A stretch of 39,646 nucleotides of DNA from Enterobacteria phage IME10. Numbering within the stretch: the first letter of the stretch is position 1; each line of letters begins with the position of its first letter. The stretch lies in the sequence record JN600960.1. One strand, written 5' to 3'. Below, piece after piece: positions 9,887 to 31,797 of this stretch. A program made the translations under genes and the position numbers. Below the pieces are notes generated by a model. It was given only the letters and a program-made list of their open reading frames with translations, ran no database searches and was not told the DNA's origin.

Positions 9887-11353
9887 ATGAGAAATATGAA
9901 ATTACTCTCAAAAAGACTAGTGGTAATTGTATGTTCTGTATTTATCCTTTCAATTATATTGTGCATACATTTAAGAAAGGGAAACTTTAACCTCAATAAT
10001 ATAAGTAGCGTACAAAATGCTAATGACATATCAACAACCAATAGTATATTGAATGATGATTTAGTGTTTTCCGAAAGATATGATTCCCTTTTTTATTACT
10101 TCGTGCATTCGTTTGTTAAATATTCTTCAGATGATTATGCTCTTGTTAATTATCCTGGGATGCTATCGACGAGTGGGAATAAGACAAACCAAGTTGAGGG
10201 TACGGCAAGGACGCTACCATTAATTGCTGCATGGGTTTATTCTGGAAGAGATTCAACCATTATCGTTAATGGTAATAAGTTAAATATAGTAGATCTGATT
10301 AGGAGTAGTATATTGTCTGGAACTAATCCAAGTTCTGTAAACTATTGGGGGGATATACATGATTATGATCAGAGAATTTTAGAGGCCGCAGATATAGTAA
10401 GAGTCTTATGGCTTACAAAAAAAGAGATATGGAATCACTTAAAAGATAATGAAAAAAATCAGATAGCTTTGTGGCTGGAGCAAGCTGCATCGGCGAAAAC
10501 TGTAAAAAACAATTGGCTACTAGCTCCATTCATAATTCAGAATTTTTTGCAGGATAATGGATATACAGTTAAGGTTAATTACAAAAATTACACAGACTTT
10601 AAGAAAAACTATCTTGAACACGGATGGTTTAGAGATGGAAATGATGGAGAAGTAGATTTCTATAATACTTGGGGTATATCCTATGACTTATTCTGGATAT
10701 CACTTATTACAGATTATGATAATGCTTTTATACTAAAAACACTATCTGAGTCGGCTGATTTCACTTCACATTTAATATCTAAAAATGGCATCCCGCTTGT
10801 TGGTAGAAGTATTTGCTACAGGACTGCAGCACCCACACCTGTTCTAATTGAAGGTCTATTAAAAAATGATGGATATCATCAAGGTTTAGCAAAATCAGCA
10901 TTAGACTATACGTGGAAATATTTTGCAAGCCACAATGCATTAGTATCAGATACATTATCAATGGGGTATTTTAATAATGACAAGCGCTTTGTTGATAATT
11001 ATAGCGGGTCAGGAAGTTGCCTGTGGGGAATAAGGTCGTTAGTTGTCGCTTATATGAATGATAAAAAATCATATATCTGGAATGGGAAATATGAGAGATT
11101 GCCTATTGATAATTCTGATTTCATTATCAATGCAGATAAACTTGGTTGGATAGTTGAGGGTAATAAAGATAGTGGAGAGATAAGGGTTATTATACCTGCA
11201 AACGAAAAAAACTCACCAAAGATAAATGATACCAATAAACTTAAAGAAGTTATATGGAGAGTTCTTGGTAAAGCAGGAAGAACTAATCAACATGACATTG
11301 AGTACCTAAAGCCATATTACTCATCACTAGAGCCTATATCTGACGTTGAGTGA
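9887..11353 (+). CDS. AT-rich cargo gene: membrane-anchored protein of unknown function (N-terminal TM helix, ~450 aa extracytoplasmic domain)
   Basis: 488 aa ORF with visibly lower GC than flanks; hydrophobic N-terminal segment LVVIVCSVFILSIILCI; sits between tailspike and attP/int, the classical lysogenic-conversion slot of P22-like phages. Confidence 0.6.
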   Translation: MRNMKLLSKRLVVIVCSVFILSIILCIHLRKGNFNLNNISSVQNANDISTTNSILNDDLVFSERYDSLFYYFVHSFVKYSSDDYALVNYPGMLSTSGNKTNQVEGTARTLPLIAAWVYSGRDSTIIVNGNKLNIVDLIRSSILSGTNPSSVNYWGDIHDYDQRILEAADIVRVLWLTKKEIWNHLKDNEKNQIALWLEQAASAKTVKNNWLLAPFIIQNFLQDNGYTVKVNYKNYTDFKKNYLEHGWFRDGNDGEVDFYNTWGISYDLFWISLITDYDNAFILKTLSESADFTSHLISKNGIPLVGRSICYRTAAPTPVLIEGLLKNDGYHQGLAKSALDYTWKYFASHNALVSDTLSMGYFNNDKRFVDNYSGSGSCLWGIRSLVVAYMNDKKSYIWNGKYERLPIDNSDFIINADKLGWIVEGNKDSGEIRVIIPANEKNSPKINDTNKLKEVIWRVLGKAGRTNQHDIEYLKPYYSSLEPISDVE

Positions 11354-11409: not shown

Positions 11410-12591
11410 TTCATCAAGCCAGTCCGCCCACCACTGCATCATTTCTCTGCGCTTATCGAGATACTGAGCATGGTTGTAAATCCCACGCACAGATCCGCCG
11501 TTGGCATGTGCCAGTTGCACTTCAATAGCGTCAGCAGGCCATTCGTGCTCGTTCATAATTGTGCTGAATTCATGCCTGAATCCGTGACCGCTTTCCAGAC
11601 CCTCATAGCCGATTTGTTTGATCACAAGCAATACTGCGTTCTCGCAGATTGGCTTCTTCTTATCGTTGCGCCCGGCAAAAACAAACTCTGATACTGGTTT
11701 AGTGATTGAGCTTAGTGTAGTGAGAAGTTCAACTACCTGGTCTGACATAGGAACCACATGAATTTTGCGTCCCTTCATCACACTGGCGTCAATGGTGATA
11801 ATCATGTTTTCAAAATCGACGTTCTTCCATTGCATGGAACGAAGCTCTTTTGTTCTGAGGGCTGTGTAGCGTAAAACTTTTGTCGCAATGAGCGATACGA
11901 TACTTCCTGAAAATGTTGCAAGTGCTTTGTTGAATGCCGGGATCTGGTCGGCAGGAAGAAACGGGAAGTTCTTCTTGCGGTATCCCTTCATGGCGTCAGC
12001 AAGGTCAGGTGCCGGGTTATATTTAGCCCTGCCGGTGACAATAGCGTAACGGAAAACCTCGCCGCATCTTCTGCGTGCTTTGTTGGCTCGCTCCATTGCA
12101 CCGCGATCTTCAAATCTGCGGATTACTTCCAGCAGTTGCATCGGCTCAATATCCAGAATCTCAAGGCCGCCGATGATAGGTAAAATGTCGTCATCAAACA
12201 TTTTTGCAAGTTCAGTCGCATACCCTACTGACCAGACTTGCTTCTTGTGCTCGTACCATTCCTTGTAAATCGCACTAAAGGAATTGTTGTTAGACGAAGC
12301 CTTTTTCGCTTTTACCGGATCGATGCCAACCGAGATGTCTTTCCTCGCGGTCCATGCTTTATCTCTTGCCTCCTGCAAAGTCATTAGCGGATATTTTCCT
12401 ACGGTCAGGATTTTCTCCTTACCGTCAATCTTGTAGCGAAGCTGCCATACCTTTTTCCCTGACACAGGGACATAAAGGTACAGGCCATTACCATCGAGTA
12501 GGCGGTATGGTTTTTCTTTCGGCTTTGCTGCTTCAATCTGCTTAACGGTGAGCATGGGTAAAAATCCGGTGGGTAAAATTATTTTATCCAC
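11398..12591 (-). CDS. int: Tyrosine integrase, P4-like (DUF4102-type N-terminal arm-binding domain)
   Basis: C-terminal catalytic motifs HGFRHEFST and GIYNHAQY; N-terminal LTVKQIEAAKPKEKPYRL; annotated start is GTG at 12591, a more likely ATG start (MLTVKQ) is at 12555. Confidence 0.9.
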   Translation of the reverse strand: MDKIILPTGFLPMLTVKQIEAAKPKEKPYRLLDGNGLYLYVPVSGKKVWQLRYKIDGKEKILTVGKYPLMTLQEARDKAWTARKDISVGIDPVKAKKASSNNNSFSAIYKEWYEHKKQVWSVGYATELAKMFDDDILPIIGGLEILDIEPMQLLEVIRRFEDRGAMERANKARRRCGEVFRYAIVTGRAKYNPAPDLADAMKGYRKKNFPFLPADQIPAFNKALATFSGSIVSLIATKVLRYTALRTKELRSMQWKNVDFENMIITIDASVMKGRKIHVVPMSDQVVELLTTLSSITKPVSEFVFAGRNDKKKPICENAVLLVIKQIGYEGLESGHGFRHEFSTIMNEHEWPADAIEVQLAHANGGSVRGIYNHAQYLDKRREMMQWWADWLDEKVA

Positions 12592-12600
12592 TTTTTACCC
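12556..12600. repeat. Cluster of GGGTAAAA / TTTTACCC octamers, candidate integrase arm-type binding sites
   Basis: GGGTAAAA at 12556 and 12571, inverted copy TTTTACCC ending at 12600; same octamer recurs at 12791 and 12803 on the other side of the att core. Confidence 0.4.
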
Positions 12601-12716
12601 GTCATGGAGTGCGGCTGTCAACGATCTGAAGCGAACCATGACGAACTGTAAATCTACGGAAGGCTTGATATTCAGGGGATTTTGCGGACTGGTACGGATG
12701 AGAGCGAACTGATAAA

Positions 12717-12731
12717 TGGTGTCCCCTGCAG
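12717..12731 (-). other. Candidate attP core matching the 3' end of tRNA-Arg (argW)
   Basis: Minus strand reads CTGCAGGGGACACCA, which matches the 3' end of E. coli argW including CCA as I recall it; lies between int and xis and is flanked by CAGGGGATT direct repeats (12673, 12749). Confidence 0.45.
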
Positions 12732-12790
12732 ACATCTACTTGAAGCGGCAGGGGATTGATTGGAATGGTGTTTTTTAGATGTGAAAAAAA

Positions 12791-12810
12791 TTTTACCCGC
12801 TATTTTACCC
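12791..12810. repeat. Two direct TTTTACCC octamers, candidate arm-type sites
   Basis: TTTTACCC at 12791-12798 and 12803-12810, overlapping the xis stop. Confidence 0.35.
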
Positions 12811-13005
12811 ATTGGCGCGGCTTAAGAGCTTATTTTTGAATTCACAATGGTCACGATATAACCATCTTGCTCGCCCGTGGATAACTTTGGCTTTAGGCAG
12901 GTCCCCGGACTTAATCCGGTCATAGATGAAGGTTTTACCGAAGCCAGTATCGGCCATGATGAATTTCAAATCAACCAGTGAATCAGGCTGTAGTTCGTGT
13001 TGCAT
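12805..13005 (-). CDS. xis: AlpA-family excisionase / transcriptional regulator
   Basis: 66 aa; winged-HTH sequence DLKFIMADTGFGKTFIYDRIKSGDLPKAKV typical of AlpA/Xis partners of P4-type integrases. Confidence 0.75.
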   Translation of the reverse strand: MQHELQPDSLVDLKFIMADTGFGKTFIYDRIKSGDLPKAKVIHGRARWLYRDHCEFKNKLLSRANG

Positions 13006-17093: not shown

Positions 17094-17573
17094 TTAAATT
17101 GCGTGAATAGCGTGACGAGGGAAGGGGAGAGTTACTGGTTCCTCGTCTGGGTAGATAGGTTTGTTATGTTTGTGCCACTCGACATGACATGACTTGCAGA
17201 GCCACATCACATCGGTTGGTTTGCTGTAGTCGCAGTGGTGCGCCTGTGGTTTACATTCTGATCCGCAGCACTCACATTGTGGTGGTCGGATTAGCTTACC
17301 GTCGCGCAAAAAATTACCCACGATGATGTGGGCTTTTCTTTTCCATGGGTTGCTCTGAATGAACCGCTTTTTGGCTGCGTTACACCGTTCTCTGCCGCGT
17401 TCCGATGATTGATATTCTCTCCTTGCTGATACTCGATGTGGCAATCCCGCGCGCTCTTTGTCGTATTCAGCCAGGCAAGCCCGGCAAGCGGCAGTTAATC
17501 CATCTCTGGATGCTCTTCTGATTTGAAAGTCCATTTCTTCCTTCTGTTGATGGCATCTTGAGCAGATTTTCAT
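17094..17573 (-). CDS. HNH endonuclease family protein
   Basis: Cys/His pattern CECCGSECKPQAHHCDYSKP...WLCKSCHVEWHKHN typical of HNH/His-Me finger nucleases. Confidence 0.65.
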   Translation of the reverse strand: MKICSRCHQQKEEMDFQIRRASRDGLTAACRACLAEYDKERAGLPHRVSARREYQSSERGRERCNAAKKRFIQSNPWKRKAHIIVGNFLRDGKLIRPPQCECCGSECKPQAHHCDYSKPTDVMWLCKSCHVEWHKHNKPIYPDEEPVTLPFPRHAIHAI

Positions 17574-25168: not shown

Positions 25169-25198
25169 TGACCATCTACATCACTGAGCTAATAACAG

Positions 25199-25226
25199 GG
25201 GCTATTTACACAGTAGCCCTTTTTTA
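25199..25226 (+). terminator. Intrinsic terminator after the helicase gene
   Basis: GGGCTA-loop-TAGCCC followed by TTTTTT. Confidence 0.5.
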
Positions 25227-25252
25227 TTGGATTAAGAACGAGGGGGATCCTG

Positions 25253-25465
25253 ATGGACACCGTTAACGGAATGTGTTCAGACGCACCGCGTGCCAAAAAA
25301 TGTAAATGCGGAAAATTACCGACAATATTCGACATGGAGAACGGGTGCCAAATCTACTGCGCTAACCACGCTGCTGTGGCGGCCGCGAATTATCGCAGTG
25401 CGGTAACGGAGTGGAATAACCTGAAATCTGTTAGAGAGGGAAGTCATGAAAAAACTAACCTTTGA
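25253..25465 (+). CDS. Small Cys-rich protein (70 aa), nin-region
   Basis: ORF with GAGGGGG RBS; CKCGK...CQIYCANH zinc-binding-like pattern. Confidence 0.5.
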   Translation: MDTVNGMCSDAPRAKKCKCGKLPTIFDMENGCQIYCANHAAVAAANYRSAVTEWNNLKSVREGSHEKTNL

Positions 25466-25886
25466 AATTCGATCTCCAGCACATCAGCAAAACGCTATTC
25501 ACGCGGTACAGCAAATTCTTCCAGACCCAACCAAACCAATCGTAGTAACCATTCAGGAACGCAACCGCAGCTTAGACCAAAATCGGAAGCTTTGGGCTTG
25601 CCTTGGTGACGTCTCTCGTCAGGTTGAATGGCATGGTCGCTGGCTGGATGCAGAAAGCTGGAAGTGTGTGTTTACCGCAGCATTAAAGCAGCAGGACGTT
25701 GTTCCTAACCTTGCCGGGAATGGCTTTGTGGTAATAGGCCAGTCAACCAGCAGGATGCGTGTAGGCGAATTTGCGGAGCTATTAGAGCTTATACAGGCAT
25801 TCGGTACAGAGCGTGGCGTTAAGTGGTCAGACGAAGCGAGACTGGCTCTGGAGTGGAAAGCGAGATGGGGAGATCGGGCTGCATGA
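25446..25886 (+). CDS. ninB: NinB (Orf-family recombination mediator)
   Basis: 146 aa, essentially identical to lambda NinB as I recall it. Confidence 0.9.
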   Translation: MKKLTFEIRSPAHQQNAIHAVQQILPDPTKPIVVTIQERNRSLDQNRKLWACLGDVSRQVEWHGRWLDAESWKCVFTAALKQQDVVPNLAGNGFVVIGQSTSRMRVGEFAELLELIQAFGTERGVKWSDEARLALEWKARWGDRAA

Positions 25887-26410
25887 CTATCAAATCAAAT
25901 ACGCCAGCACACGACAAGGACTGCTGGCAAACGCCGCTTTGGCTTTTTGATGCACTGGATATTGAGTTTGGATTCTGGCTGGATTCGGCAGCGAGCGACA
26001 AAAATGCTCTGTGTGCTCACTGGCTAACTGAGGCCGACGACGCGCTCAATTCTGAGTGGGTAAGCCACGGTGCAATCTGGAATAACCCACCGTACAGCAA
26101 TATCAGGCCGTGGGTGGAAAAAGCCGCTGAGCAGTGCATACAACAGCGACAGACGGTAGTGATGCTTGTGCCAGAGGATATGTCTGTCGGATGGTTCAGC
26201 AAGGCTCTGGAGAGTGTTGACGAAGTTCGCATCATCACTGATGGACGGATTAATTTTATCGAACCATCGACGGGGTTGGAGAAGAAGGGAAACAGCAAAG
26301 GTTCCATACTGCTGATTTGGCGACCGTTCATCAGTCCTCGACGGATGTTTACTACCGTATCCAAAGCGGCATTGATGGCGATCGGGCAGGGCGTCAGGAG
26401 GGCGGAATGA
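25883..26410 (+). CDS. Phage-type DNA N6-adenine methyltransferase (orphan Dam-like)
   Basis: Start [12 protein letters not shown] (ATGA overlap with ninB stop); [16 protein letters not shown] and the catalytic NPPY motif. Confidence 0.75.
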
Positions 26411-26583
26411 GGCGACAGCAACGAAGTATCACCGACATAATCTGCGAAAACTGCAAATACCTTCCAACGAAACGCTCCAGAAATAAACGCAAGCCAATCC
26501 CAAAAGAATCTGACGTAAAAACCTTCAACTACACGGCTCACCTGTGGGATATCCGGTGGCTAAGACATCGTGCGAGGAAATGA
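26406..26583 (+). CDS. ninE: NinE
   Basis: [58 protein letters not shown] matches lambda NinE as recalled. Confidence 0.75.
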
Positions 26584-26945
26584 CAATGGATTATTCACAG
26601 TTAAGTGATTTTGAAATTAACGTGGCGGTATTCGAAGTCATTCATAACGGATCACCGGATTACAAAGAAGGTGAGAATGGCGATATGGTGTTTATCTCAT
26701 TTGAGGGAGACGTTGTAAACGGAGACGCAGTTGAAGTAGAAGTTGAGCGCGGATCATTTAACCCATGCGTAAACCCAGCAGACGCATGGCCGATTGTTGA
26801 AAAATACAGGATTAGCATTATCAATCTCGATGAAGACGAGTGGGGTGCACGCGGTGTGGCCTACTGTAAATCTAAGCGAGCTATACATGAAAATCCCCTC
26901 CGCGCCGCCATGATTGTCTTTCTCATGATGCAGAGAATCCAATAA
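26580..26945 (+). CDS. nin-region hypothetical protein (NinX-like)
   Basis: ORF between ninE and ninF; start at 26580 or 26586. Confidence 0.5.
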
Positions 26946-29191: not shown

Positions 29192-29233
29192 CAGCATGAT
29201 TGCCACGGATGGCAACATATTAACGGCATGATA

Positions 29234-29262
29234 TTGACTTATTGAATAAAGTTGGGTAAATT
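29234..29262 (+). promoter_or_regulatory. Late promoter PR' (-35 TTGACT, -10 TAAATT) with qut site
   Basis: Lambda-like PR' sequence directly downstream of Q; 17-nt spacer. Confidence 0.75.
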
Positions 29263-29268
29263 TGACTC

Positions 29269-29461
29269 AACGATGGGTTAATTCGCTCGTTGTGGTAGTG
29301 AGATGAAAAGAGGCGGCGCTTACTACCGATTCCGCCTAGTTGGTCACTTCGACGCATCGTCTGGAACTCCAACCATCGCAGGCTGAGAGGTCAGTAAAAT
29401 GCAATCCCGAAACAGTTCGCAGGTAATAGTTAGAGCCTGCATAACGGTTTCGGGATTTTTT
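29269..29461 (+). ncRNA. Short late leader transcript (lambda 6S RNA equivalent) from PR' to tR'
   Basis: About 193 nt between the predicted PR' start and the tR' terminator, as in lambda. Confidence 0.55.
29403..29461 (+). terminator. tR' intrinsic terminator
   Basis: Stem AATCCCGAAAC...GTTTCGGGATT followed by T6. Confidence 0.8.
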
Positions 29462-30000
29462 ATATCTGCACAACAGGTAAGAGCATTGAGCCGATAATCG
29501 TGAAGAGTCGGCGAGCCTGGTTAGCCAGTGCTCTTTCCGTTGTGGTGAATACGCAGGCTGATGCGTTAATCAGGTGAACGAGACACCCGCCGGTCCGTGA
29601 TATGGCACACTGTGCCGGTCATATCTGCCGCGGTTAGGTTTACGAGGATTTCGTAAAGCTGGTCTAGGGTGAAGCCGTGAAAGCGGAGGAAGTAAAACGA
29701 GGCGTCGGTACACGCCTATCGTCATTAAGTCGGAGTTCAGCACCGACCGCCACAACCCAACCTGAGCCGTAGCCACTGGCTGTCCTGAATTCATCAGTGA
29801 TAGTTATGCTGCGTCCTTCTACACATGACCTTCGTGAAAGCGGGTGGCAAGAGGCTGCGCTAACAACCTCCTGCCGTTTTGCCCGTGCATATCGGTCACG
29901 AACAAATCTGATTACTAAACACAGTAGCCTGGATTTGTTCTATCAGTAATCGACCTTATTCCTAATTAAATAGAGCAAATCCCCTTATTGGGGGTAAGAC

Positions 30001-31296: not shown

Positions 31297-31797
31297 ATGA
31301 CCCAGCATATTGGCGTAAAACTGATTAACGCCTTTCCGATGACGAGACAGGCATATAACGATTTTCGTGGCTGGCAGCTTCCTGCCGGAGAAAACGGCGA
31401 GGACGAAGGCTATCTGGTTGAATATCTGGATGGCGGAAAACCTAACACCGATCGCTTTGATGGCTACGTTAGCTGGAGTCCAAAAGAAGTATTCGAAAAG
31501 GCTTATCGTCAGGTATCAGGGCTAAGTTTCGGCCTTGCCATCGAAGCACTCAAACTGGGTAAGAAAGTTACCCGTGCTGGCTGGAATGGGAAAGGCATGT
31601 ATCTGCAATTAGTTCAGCCACCGCAATCAGCCACTCCGAATGATTGGCGCTATGACGTTACATGTGGTGACGAGTATACATTTGTTCCTGGTGTAAAACT
31701 TCTTCCCTGGATTGGGATGAAGACTGCTGATTGTAAATTTGTTCCGTGGTTGGCGAGTCAGACTGATGTTCTGGCTGAAGACTGGCAAATCATTTAA
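31297..31797 (+). CDS. DUF2829-like protein (Tad2-like fold candidate) with an N-terminal extension
   Basis: C-terminal half [26 protein letters not shown] ... [32 protein letters not shown] resembles the DUF2829 family from memory. Confidence 0.5.

Follow-up and report, generated by a model that had tools for sequence, protein, structure and literature searches.

An intact and ordinary copy of a small phage dam gene between ninB and ninE of Enterobacteria phage IME10

The Dam proteins of phages T1 and HP1 have been named among the phage-encoded Dam-like methyltransferases, a group of enzymes whose function "is still not well understood" (PMC7556043). In phage VT2-Sakai, the dam gene (BAA94133) lies between ninB and ninE and encodes a protein of 175 amino acids. 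This protein has the REBASE name M.EcoVT2Dam and is "known to target 5'-GATC-3'" according to one report (PMC6602927, citing Radlinska & Bujnicki 2001). The protein is identical in Phi24B and near-identical in 933W, HK97, Sf101, HK544 and mEp043, and the VT2-Sakai annotation reads "similar to 933W L0094, HP1 Orf13 and T1 M.T1". In lambda, the same slot between ninB and ninE is occupied by ninC and ninD, which are likewise joined by ATGA overlaps but encode proteins unrelated to Dam, NinC being PAPS-reductase-like. Nin regions are typically mosaic in this way, with cassettes exchanged at conserved gene boundaries (PMC8022706). The E. coli host, for its part, possesses a Dam enzyme of its own, which is also an orphan and catalyses the same reaction at the same reported target, G-m6A-TC.

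The window, by which we mean the whole stretch of 39,646 nucleotides analysed here (Enterobacteria phage IME10, JN600960.1), belongs to a P22-like mosaic phage, a podovirus and not an Stx phage. Its P22-type parts comprise the head-binding tailspike, portal, scaffold, coat and gp3-type small terminase genes, and it further encodes an integrase, cI/cII, SSB, Abc2, a DnaB-type helicase and an Erf-like annealing protein matching the Rad52/22 family. A Tad2-like gene and a DUF2264 gene are also present elsewhere in the window. From the helicase gene onwards the order is a terminator-like hairpin, a 70-aa ORF, NinB, Dam, NinE, NinX, NinF, NinG, NinH, a Ser/Thr phosphatase and Q. The dam ORF is intact, with 175 codons and a stop on the plus strand at 25883..26410, which is exact to the base the position that a sequence-only reading of this DNA had assigned to it. 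The placement between ninB and ninE in that reading is equally borne out by the flanking ORFs: upstream lies ninB, encoding the Orf recombination mediator (25446..25886, plus strand; PF05772, 2e-54), and downstream ninE (26407..26583, plus strand; PF05322, 2.6e-43).

Both ends of dam overlap its neighbours. The start codon (25883-25885) shares an ATGA with the ninB stop codon (25884-25886), so that the junction occupies 25883..25886 on the plus strand, and the TGA stop (26408-26410) shares a second ATGA, at 26407..26410 on the same strand, with the ninE start codon (26407-26409). Junctions of this kind are typical for nin regions (PMC8022706), and VT2-Sakai has the same ninB-dam-ninE order with the same overlapping start and stop codons. 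Through these overlaps, translation of dam may be coupled to that of ninB and ninE. A Shine-Dalgarno-like GGGGAG (25867..25872, plus strand) stands 10 nt 5' of the dam ATG, within the 3' end of ninB. A longer frame of 195 aa, starting from a GTG at 25823, was considered and rejected: annotated homologues have 175 aa, the family profiles begin at residue 2-4 of the 175-aa form, and it is the ATG at 25883 that makes the ATGA junction and has the GGGGAG run upstream.

The assignment of the predicted product to the phage N6-adenine methyltransferases is far beyond chance. It matches Pfam PF05869, "DNA N-6-adenine-methyltransferase (Dam)", over profile positions 1-167 of 169 with E = 1.2e-64 and 217.5 bits against a cut-off of 28.1, and the NCBIfam equivalog TIGR01712, "phage N-6-adenine-methyltransferase", over positions 1-165 of 165 with 264.5 bits against a curated cut-off of 97.05 bits. 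In PHROGs, it matches phrog_111, "DNA methyltransferase", with E = 1.4e-86. The profile comparison that the sequence-only reading had proposed as a check thus returned full-length matches to phage methyltransferase families, both PF05869 and TIGR01712 above their curated cut-offs, in agreement with the enzyme identity it had claimed. The NPPY motif on which that claim was built is also real: catalytic motif IV is N68-P69-P70-Y71 (aac cca ccg tac, 26084..26095, plus strand). It is invariant in an alignment of the protein with VT2-Sakai, T1 and HP1 Dam and with 14 homologues from other enterobacteria, and in a larger set of 66 sequences N68, P69 and P70 never vary and Y71 hardly does. Loss of catalytic residues had been named as a finding that would speak against the assignment, and the alignment revealed the opposite, with every invariant column (T17, P18, L33, D34, N68, P69, P70, Y71, S72 and others) represented in the protein. 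Four of these residues, T17, P18, L33 and D34, belong to a conserved N-terminal block, TP...F.LD.AA. Within this block the 10-residue segment F29-S38 (25967..25996, plus strand), which by the alignments and an AlphaFold2 (AF2) model contains strand beta-1 with the invariant L33 and D34, is probably the AdoMet-binding region, equivalent to motif I.

The protein differs from M.EcoVT2Dam, which has the same length, only by I143M and E175A (99.4% identity). T1 Dam (M.EcoT1Dam) and HP1 Dam (orf13) are more distant members of the same Pfam family that share with it the motifs TP...LD.AA...NPPYS; they are 32-35% identical to it, neither adjoins ninB, and T1 Dam carries about 45 additional residues at the N terminus as well as an internal insertion. 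At the DNA level, the 1138 bp of ninB-dam-ninE are 97.5-98.4% identical to the best-matching phage records, which include Sf101, E212, Louie, HK544, mEp043, ECP1, N7 and many "Lambda_ev" isolates. Almost every one of these records has a DNA (N6-adenine) methyltransferase annotated between ninB and ninE, a layout also found in the annotations of Sf101, HK544, mEp043 and VT2-Sakai. Of 5426 complete E. coli genomes, 1566 (∼29%) match the dam gene alone with 95-99% DNA identity; RefSeq labels the gene there as "phage N-6-adenine-methyltransferase", flanked by "recombination protein NinB" and "NinE family protein". In a tblastn search, 241 phage records were found to encode a product with 95% or higher identity to the protein. 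The wider family comprises 8778 clusters at 50% identity (E <= 0.001), and databases contain many truncated copies. Annotation of the gene, with its family, position and likely specificity, goes back to the VT2-Sakai and 933W genomes, and the feature is already known; what the window holds is a real but ordinary, intact copy of a well-known small phage gene.

The gene had also been described as lacking an adjacent restriction endonuclease. Its surroundings are NinB, NinE and NinX, and a scan of these neighbours and of further ORFs in the early-left and nin regions gave no match to a restriction-endonuclease family. Consistently, the best PADLOC matches of the dam product are "orphan methyltransferase" (oMTase) models. 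Homologues at 60-68% identity occur in Yersinia, Klebsiella and Providencia prophages, none of which, among those examined, has a nuclease as neighbour of the homologue, and the T1 and HP1 genes are likewise solitary in early clusters. The described absence of a partner therefore stands for the neighbours of dam and for the flanks of the homologues examined. One candidate partner, the ORF at 17094-17573, was rejected: although it matches a PHROG named "endonuclease", no Pfam family matches it, and its place is 8 kb off on the opposite strand, inside the Erf-SSB-Abc2 recombination module.

By its 99.4% identity to M.EcoVT2Dam, the dam product probably methylates the adenine of GATC. The earlier wording "Dam-like" is thus apt for the specificity, as reported for M.EcoVT2Dam, but not for the ancestry. 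BLASTP found no detectable similarity to E. coli K-12 Dam (E = 7.7), PF02086, the family of the host enzyme, did not match the phage protein at E <= 0.01, and E. coli Dam structures rank only 14 and 22 among the structural matches to the phage protein, with TM 0.33-0.35. Membership of the E. coli Dam / DpnM / T4 Dam family (PF02086, alpha class) was accordingly rejected. The architecture differs as well, the host enzyme having 278 aa with a DNA-recognition domain and the phage enzyme 175 aa in a single domain. The shared GATC specificity, as reported, would be a convergent property of two unrelated families in host and phage. Altogether, we are highly confident in reading the gene as encoding a minimal, orphan, AdoMet-dependent Dam of the PF05869 family, an orthologue of M.EcoVT2Dam that would make m6A in GATC. 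By the same reading, the gene is a cassette standing in place of ninC and ninD, probably expressed delayed-early and serving to complete GATC methylation.

The position of dam bears on when it is expressed. A terminator-like hairpin followed by a T-run, identified as a pattern match, lies in the interval between helicase and nin genes (25197..25231, plus strand), the position of tR2 in lambda and Sf6, and Sf6 annotates tR2 at the equivalent spot. By sequence, dam has the placement of a lambdoid nin gene, in the interval between the replication genes and Q, 3' of the tR2-like site and packed by ATGA junctions. Nine promoter-like sites were found in the nin region where 9.8 were expected, which is not above chance or shuffled sequence, and none lies on the plus strand between 25200 and 25883. 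The tR2-like terminator upstream suggests that the nin operon, including dam, is read by antiterminated pR transcription, and since dam lies 3' of this terminator and has no promoter-like site of its own, expression in the lytic cycle is favoured over expression from a repressed prophage. Dam would then belong to the delayed-early proteins of the antiterminated pR operon and appear during lytic growth or upon induction. The expression of Phi24B dam, which encodes the identical product of VT2-Sakai dam, changes significantly on prophage induction (PMC3342100).

The most likely role for dam is a topping-up of GATC methylation on fast-replicating phage DNA. According to this model, phage DNA replicates faster than the host Dam can follow, and the phage enzyme would complete the methylation, so that progeny genomes become fully methylated. 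Full methylation may protect them from m6A-sensitive restriction enzymes that cut GATC, including in Dam-poor hosts, and also from MutH and SeqA, which act on un- or hemimethylated GATC. In virions of lambda, P22 and L, Dam methylation of the DNA is incomplete (PMC8022706), reaching about 50% in lambda (bioRxiv 10.1101/2025.08.29.673000), and according to one proposal MutH counter-selects GATC that phages leave unmethylated (PMC5014478). It is this combination, of partial methylation in virions with a proposed liability of unmethylated GATC, that favours the model. The MutH branch of the benefit is weakened by the 2025 lambda study, in which GATC undermethylation had no effect on mismatch repair (bioRxiv 10.1101/2025.08.29.673000). 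Furthermore, since the host already has Dam, any benefit would be quantitative at best. In Sf6, the same gene is interrupted by an amber codon at codon 50 (GAG-to-TAG) and no CDS is annotated there; as Sf6 is a viable laboratory phage, dam is dispensable.

The GATC content of the phage DNA was compared among the window, T1, part of Sf6 and part of HP1. The window contains 84 GATC sites, against 154 expected from base composition (O/E 0.55) and 202 expected from a Markov model (O/E 0.42). The corresponding ratios in the 19-kb part of Sf6 are 0.54 and 0.42, whereas T1, with an O/E of 1.26 on base composition, is not depleted. Since the depletion in the window equals that in the Sf6 part with its broken dam, unlike in T1, carriage of dam goes with no visible relaxation of selection against GATC. 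No cluster of GATC sites (at least 3 within 80 bp) exists anywhere in the window, and the small-terminase gene has one GATC only. A P1-like control of packaging and oriC/SeqA-like GATC clusters were therefore rejected as functions of the methylation.

Alternatively, the enzyme might act in the lysogen, where Dam expressed from the prophage would add to or override host Dam, methylating GATC sites normally guarded by OxyR or Lrp and thereby altering host or prophage expression or the stability of lysogeny. Several observations on related phages speak for such an epigenetic role. An antiserum against lysogen cultures recognised the identical product of Phi24B dam, which in the authors' view might supplement host Dam in lysogens (PMC3342100). 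Host Dam is also reported to be necessary for stable 933W lysogeny (cited in PMC3342100), and Dam/OxyR phase variation is described in P22-like prophages (PMC8022706). However, lysogen cultures include spontaneously induced cells, and Phi24B dam changes on induction as the lytic genes do (PMC3342100). The location of the IME10 gene in the pR operon, behind the tR2-like terminator and with no promoter-like site in the plus-strand stretch preceding it, argues in the same direction. In STEC 95NR1, moreover, which has two copies of M.EcoVT2Dam, SMRT sequencing revealed no methylation motif other than GATC that could be assigned to them, and GATC is the target of host Dam too (PMC6602927). We thus consider a role in the lysogen unlikely. 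Anti-restriction and altered host expression in lysogens, the two roles put forward in the sequence-only reading, are generic suggestions, of which regulation in the lysogen is possible though disfavoured by the operon position.

That reading had further described the methyltransferase gene as inserted in the nin region. The location in the nin region is correct, but the gene is not an insertion. In a blastn comparison, lambda is 97.6% identical to the window through ninB up to its stop codon, where the identity ends (window 25886 = lambda 41084), and identity resumes at window 26414 (= lambda 42097), within ninE. Because lambda homology stops at the ninB stop and resumes at ninE, dam is best seen as an alternative cassette that exactly replaces lambda ninC and ninD, and it belongs to a set of several interchangeable cassettes that lambdoid phages carry between ninB and ninE. 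The two kinds of occupant are linked by a relative, P0195, a natural fusion of Dam with NinC that has 49% identity to lambda NinC in its C-terminal part; since P0195 fuses both, Dam and NinC are not strict alternatives. This fusion and the Tad2-like and DUF2264 genes are the only points here that are even mildly new.

With this in mind, one may speculate that the ninB-ninE slot is a swap site for DNA-acting enzymes that work with recombination genes, and that Dam, more than a duplicate of the host activity, shields replicating and recombining DNA from MutH and SeqA or from a defence that reads GATC. Three observations hint at this. The Dam-NinC fusion exists; homologues lie close to recombination genes, the Klebsiella one directly after GamL-RecT-YqaJ and the Yersinia one downstream of YqaJ in the same early-left block, near an integrase gene too, just as dam follows NinB here; and T1, in which Dam is fixed, is not GATC-depleted. 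A conserved functional coupling of Dam with NinB in particular was rejected, as the adjacency is missing in T1 and HP1 and in the Yersinia, Klebsiella and Providencia prophages, the Providencia homologue lying between the replication genes and Q. We regard the swap-site idea as slightly less probable even than the role in the lysogen. If true, it would provide the first functional lead for the uncharacterised NinC of lambda.

A more sceptical proposal is that dam is a neutral passenger without benefit, spread by mosaic recombination at conserved boundaries between nin genes. The amber codon of the Sf6 copy and the frequency of truncated copies fit with this, as do lambda, which manages without dam, and the equal GATC depletion of the window and the Sf6 part, one with an intact dam and one with a broken copy. 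Against it, the ORF is intact with all invariant residues, the gene is kept at high DNA identity in the 1566 complete E. coli genomes, and the 8778 family clusters include members in early operons of unrelated phages. As an intact ORF, wide retention and a large family in the early operons of unrelated phages all argue for selection on dam, we find it improbable that the gene is a mere passenger.

The predicted structure bears on the specificity of the enzyme. The AF2 model, built from 66 sequences with a pLDDT of 89.3 and a pTM of 0.87, folds into one Rossmann-like alpha/beta domain, with no target-recognition domain set apart from it, and the TP...F.LD.AA block forms a strand at E31-36. The apparent lack of such a domain in the model is compatible with a relaxed, non-GATC specificity that would provide broad anti-restriction cover, as in Hia5, M.EcoGII or the OS31 methyltransferase, and phage-borne non-specific adenine methyltransferases do exist (PMC3299994, PMC5778455, PMC7556043). 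Like the IME10 protein, Hia5/Hin1523, M.EcoGI/GII and PhiOS31_p25 are orphan, phage- or prophage-borne m6A DNA enzymes, thought to serve in anti-restriction, yet they are larger, have target-recognition regions and methylate adenine in almost any context, in contrast to the GATC specificity of the characterised members of the phage Dam family. They also belong to other families, Hia5 being akin to E. coli Dam/DpnM and M.EcoGII of the beta class, and an assignment of the phage protein to the Hia5 / M.EcoGII type was rejected on this ground. In addition, the near-identical M.EcoVT2Dam is reported as GATC-specific (PMC6602927), no extra adenine motif could be attributed to its two copies in 95NR1 (PMC6602927), and even the distant T1 and HP1 members are listed as Dam-like (PMC7556043). 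A relaxed specificity is thus very improbable, marginally more so than a passenger gene.

Among viral predicted structures, the best matches to the model are phage N6-adenine methyltransferases (TM up to 0.88), with PCIF1-like proteins of giant viruses also among the matches. A sequence search of the PDB gave no meaningful match, and no solved member of PF05869 was found. The nearest solved fold is CAPAM/PCIF1 (PDB 6iry and relatives; Foldseek TM 0.58, probability 1.0), which shares an N6-adenine methyltransferase domain with phage Dam but is a eukaryotic mRNA cap enzyme with extra domains and about 470-490 residues in the crystallised constructs; the tRNA enzyme TrmM is also among the closest solved structures. 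That phage Dam might methylate adenine in RNA and not in DNA, as the cap-specific mRNA m6Am activity of CAPAM/PCIF1 and the presence of TrmM could suggest, is extremely improbable, given that the structural likeness is modest (14-15% identity, rmsd above 5 Å), that for a family with no solved structure the PDB neighbour is simply the nearest on offer, and that family members are described as DNA GATC methylases (PMC7556043, PMC6602927).

The finding adds little to what is already recorded, as the NCBI annotation pipeline names this gene automatically. It leaves two questions, neither of them specific to the window: how an enzyme of 175 residues that lacks a recognition domain reads GATC, and why so many E. 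coli phages encode a GATC methylase of another family when their host already supplies Dam.

The closest solved structure to the AlphaFold2 model of the window Dam (mba77802b04ce, window 25883-26407) is that of CAPAM/PCIF1 (6iry; TM 0.58, probability 1.0), a eukaryotic m6Am methyltransferase acting on the mRNA cap. No bacterial DNA methyltransferase ranks as the closest solved structure to this model, and its viral structural matches include giant-virus PCIF1-like proteins.

Several relatives recovered in the family-wide homologue search carry the Dam domain as part of a larger protein. One of them, P0195 (452 aa), is a single protein with the PF05869 Dam domain at its N-terminus and a PAPS-reductase-like domain at its C-terminus, and lambda NinC (882-1751 of the lambda part compared) is 49% identical to this C-terminal part (E = 5e-95). 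Dam-like and NinC-like parts are thus joined in one chain in P0195, and therefore the two, which occupy the ninB-ninE interval in different phages, can co-occur in fused form. P0195 could be a true fusion, or could reflect the loss of a stop codon at an ATGA junction. In four other relatives (P0137, P0141, P0149 and P0241; 515-691 aa), a PF00145 C5-cytosine methyltransferase domain is N-terminal and the PF05869 domain C-terminal, the latter being 49-50% identical to the window Dam in the first three and 46% in P0241. From their domain content, these proteins look like dual m5C/m6A phage methylases. Gp55 of Klebsiella phage Seifer (NC_048732, 2456-3166 of the part compared; 236 aa) is annotated as a 'phosphoadenosine phosphosulfate reductase', and the window Dam matches its region in tblastn with 28% identity (E = 3e-6). 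This annotation was probably inherited from families in which Dam and PAPS reductase are fused.

A gene for NinX (26580-26945, + strand; PF10765, 7.3e-18) lies between ninE and ninF, with a further ATGA overlap at the ninE-NinX junction. Lambda has no NinX gene, its homology to the window skipping from lambda position 42263 to 42297, and by this alignment NinX is a second cassette difference from lambda within the same nin region. No tRNA genes were found across the whole window, including 29192-30000. In Sf6, a related phage, genes for tRNA-Asn and tRNA-Thr lie between Q and the holin gene.

Directly after the lysis genes lies a 166-aa ORF (31297-31797, + strand), residues 77-166 of which match the Tad2-like (Thoeris anti-defence 2-like) domain PF11195 (E = 1.8e-24); this ORF is a candidate anti-Thoeris sponge gene of the P22-like window phage. 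A 488-aa DUF2264 ORF (9887-11353, + strand; PF10022, 3e-63) has the tailspike gene on one side and the integrase gene on the other, an interval that in P22-like phages is the usual site of O-antigen-modifying morons.

Although the phage has a GATC methylase gene of its own, GATC is strongly depleted in its genome, with 84 sites in the whole window and observed/expected ratios of 0.55 on base composition and 0.42 under a Markov model. CTAG (0.37) and GGCC (0.48) are depleted as well. Phage T1, in contrast, has a related Dam without GATC depletion (1.26 on base composition).

Sf6 (AF547987) carries at 12336-12863 the same dam gene as the window (25883-26410), flanked by genes 50 (ninB) and 52 (ninE). 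Codon 50 of the Sf6 copy is TAG, as against GAG in the window, and the locus has no annotated CDS. With this in-frame stop, Sf6 dam amounts to a natural knockout and demonstrates that dam is dispensable.
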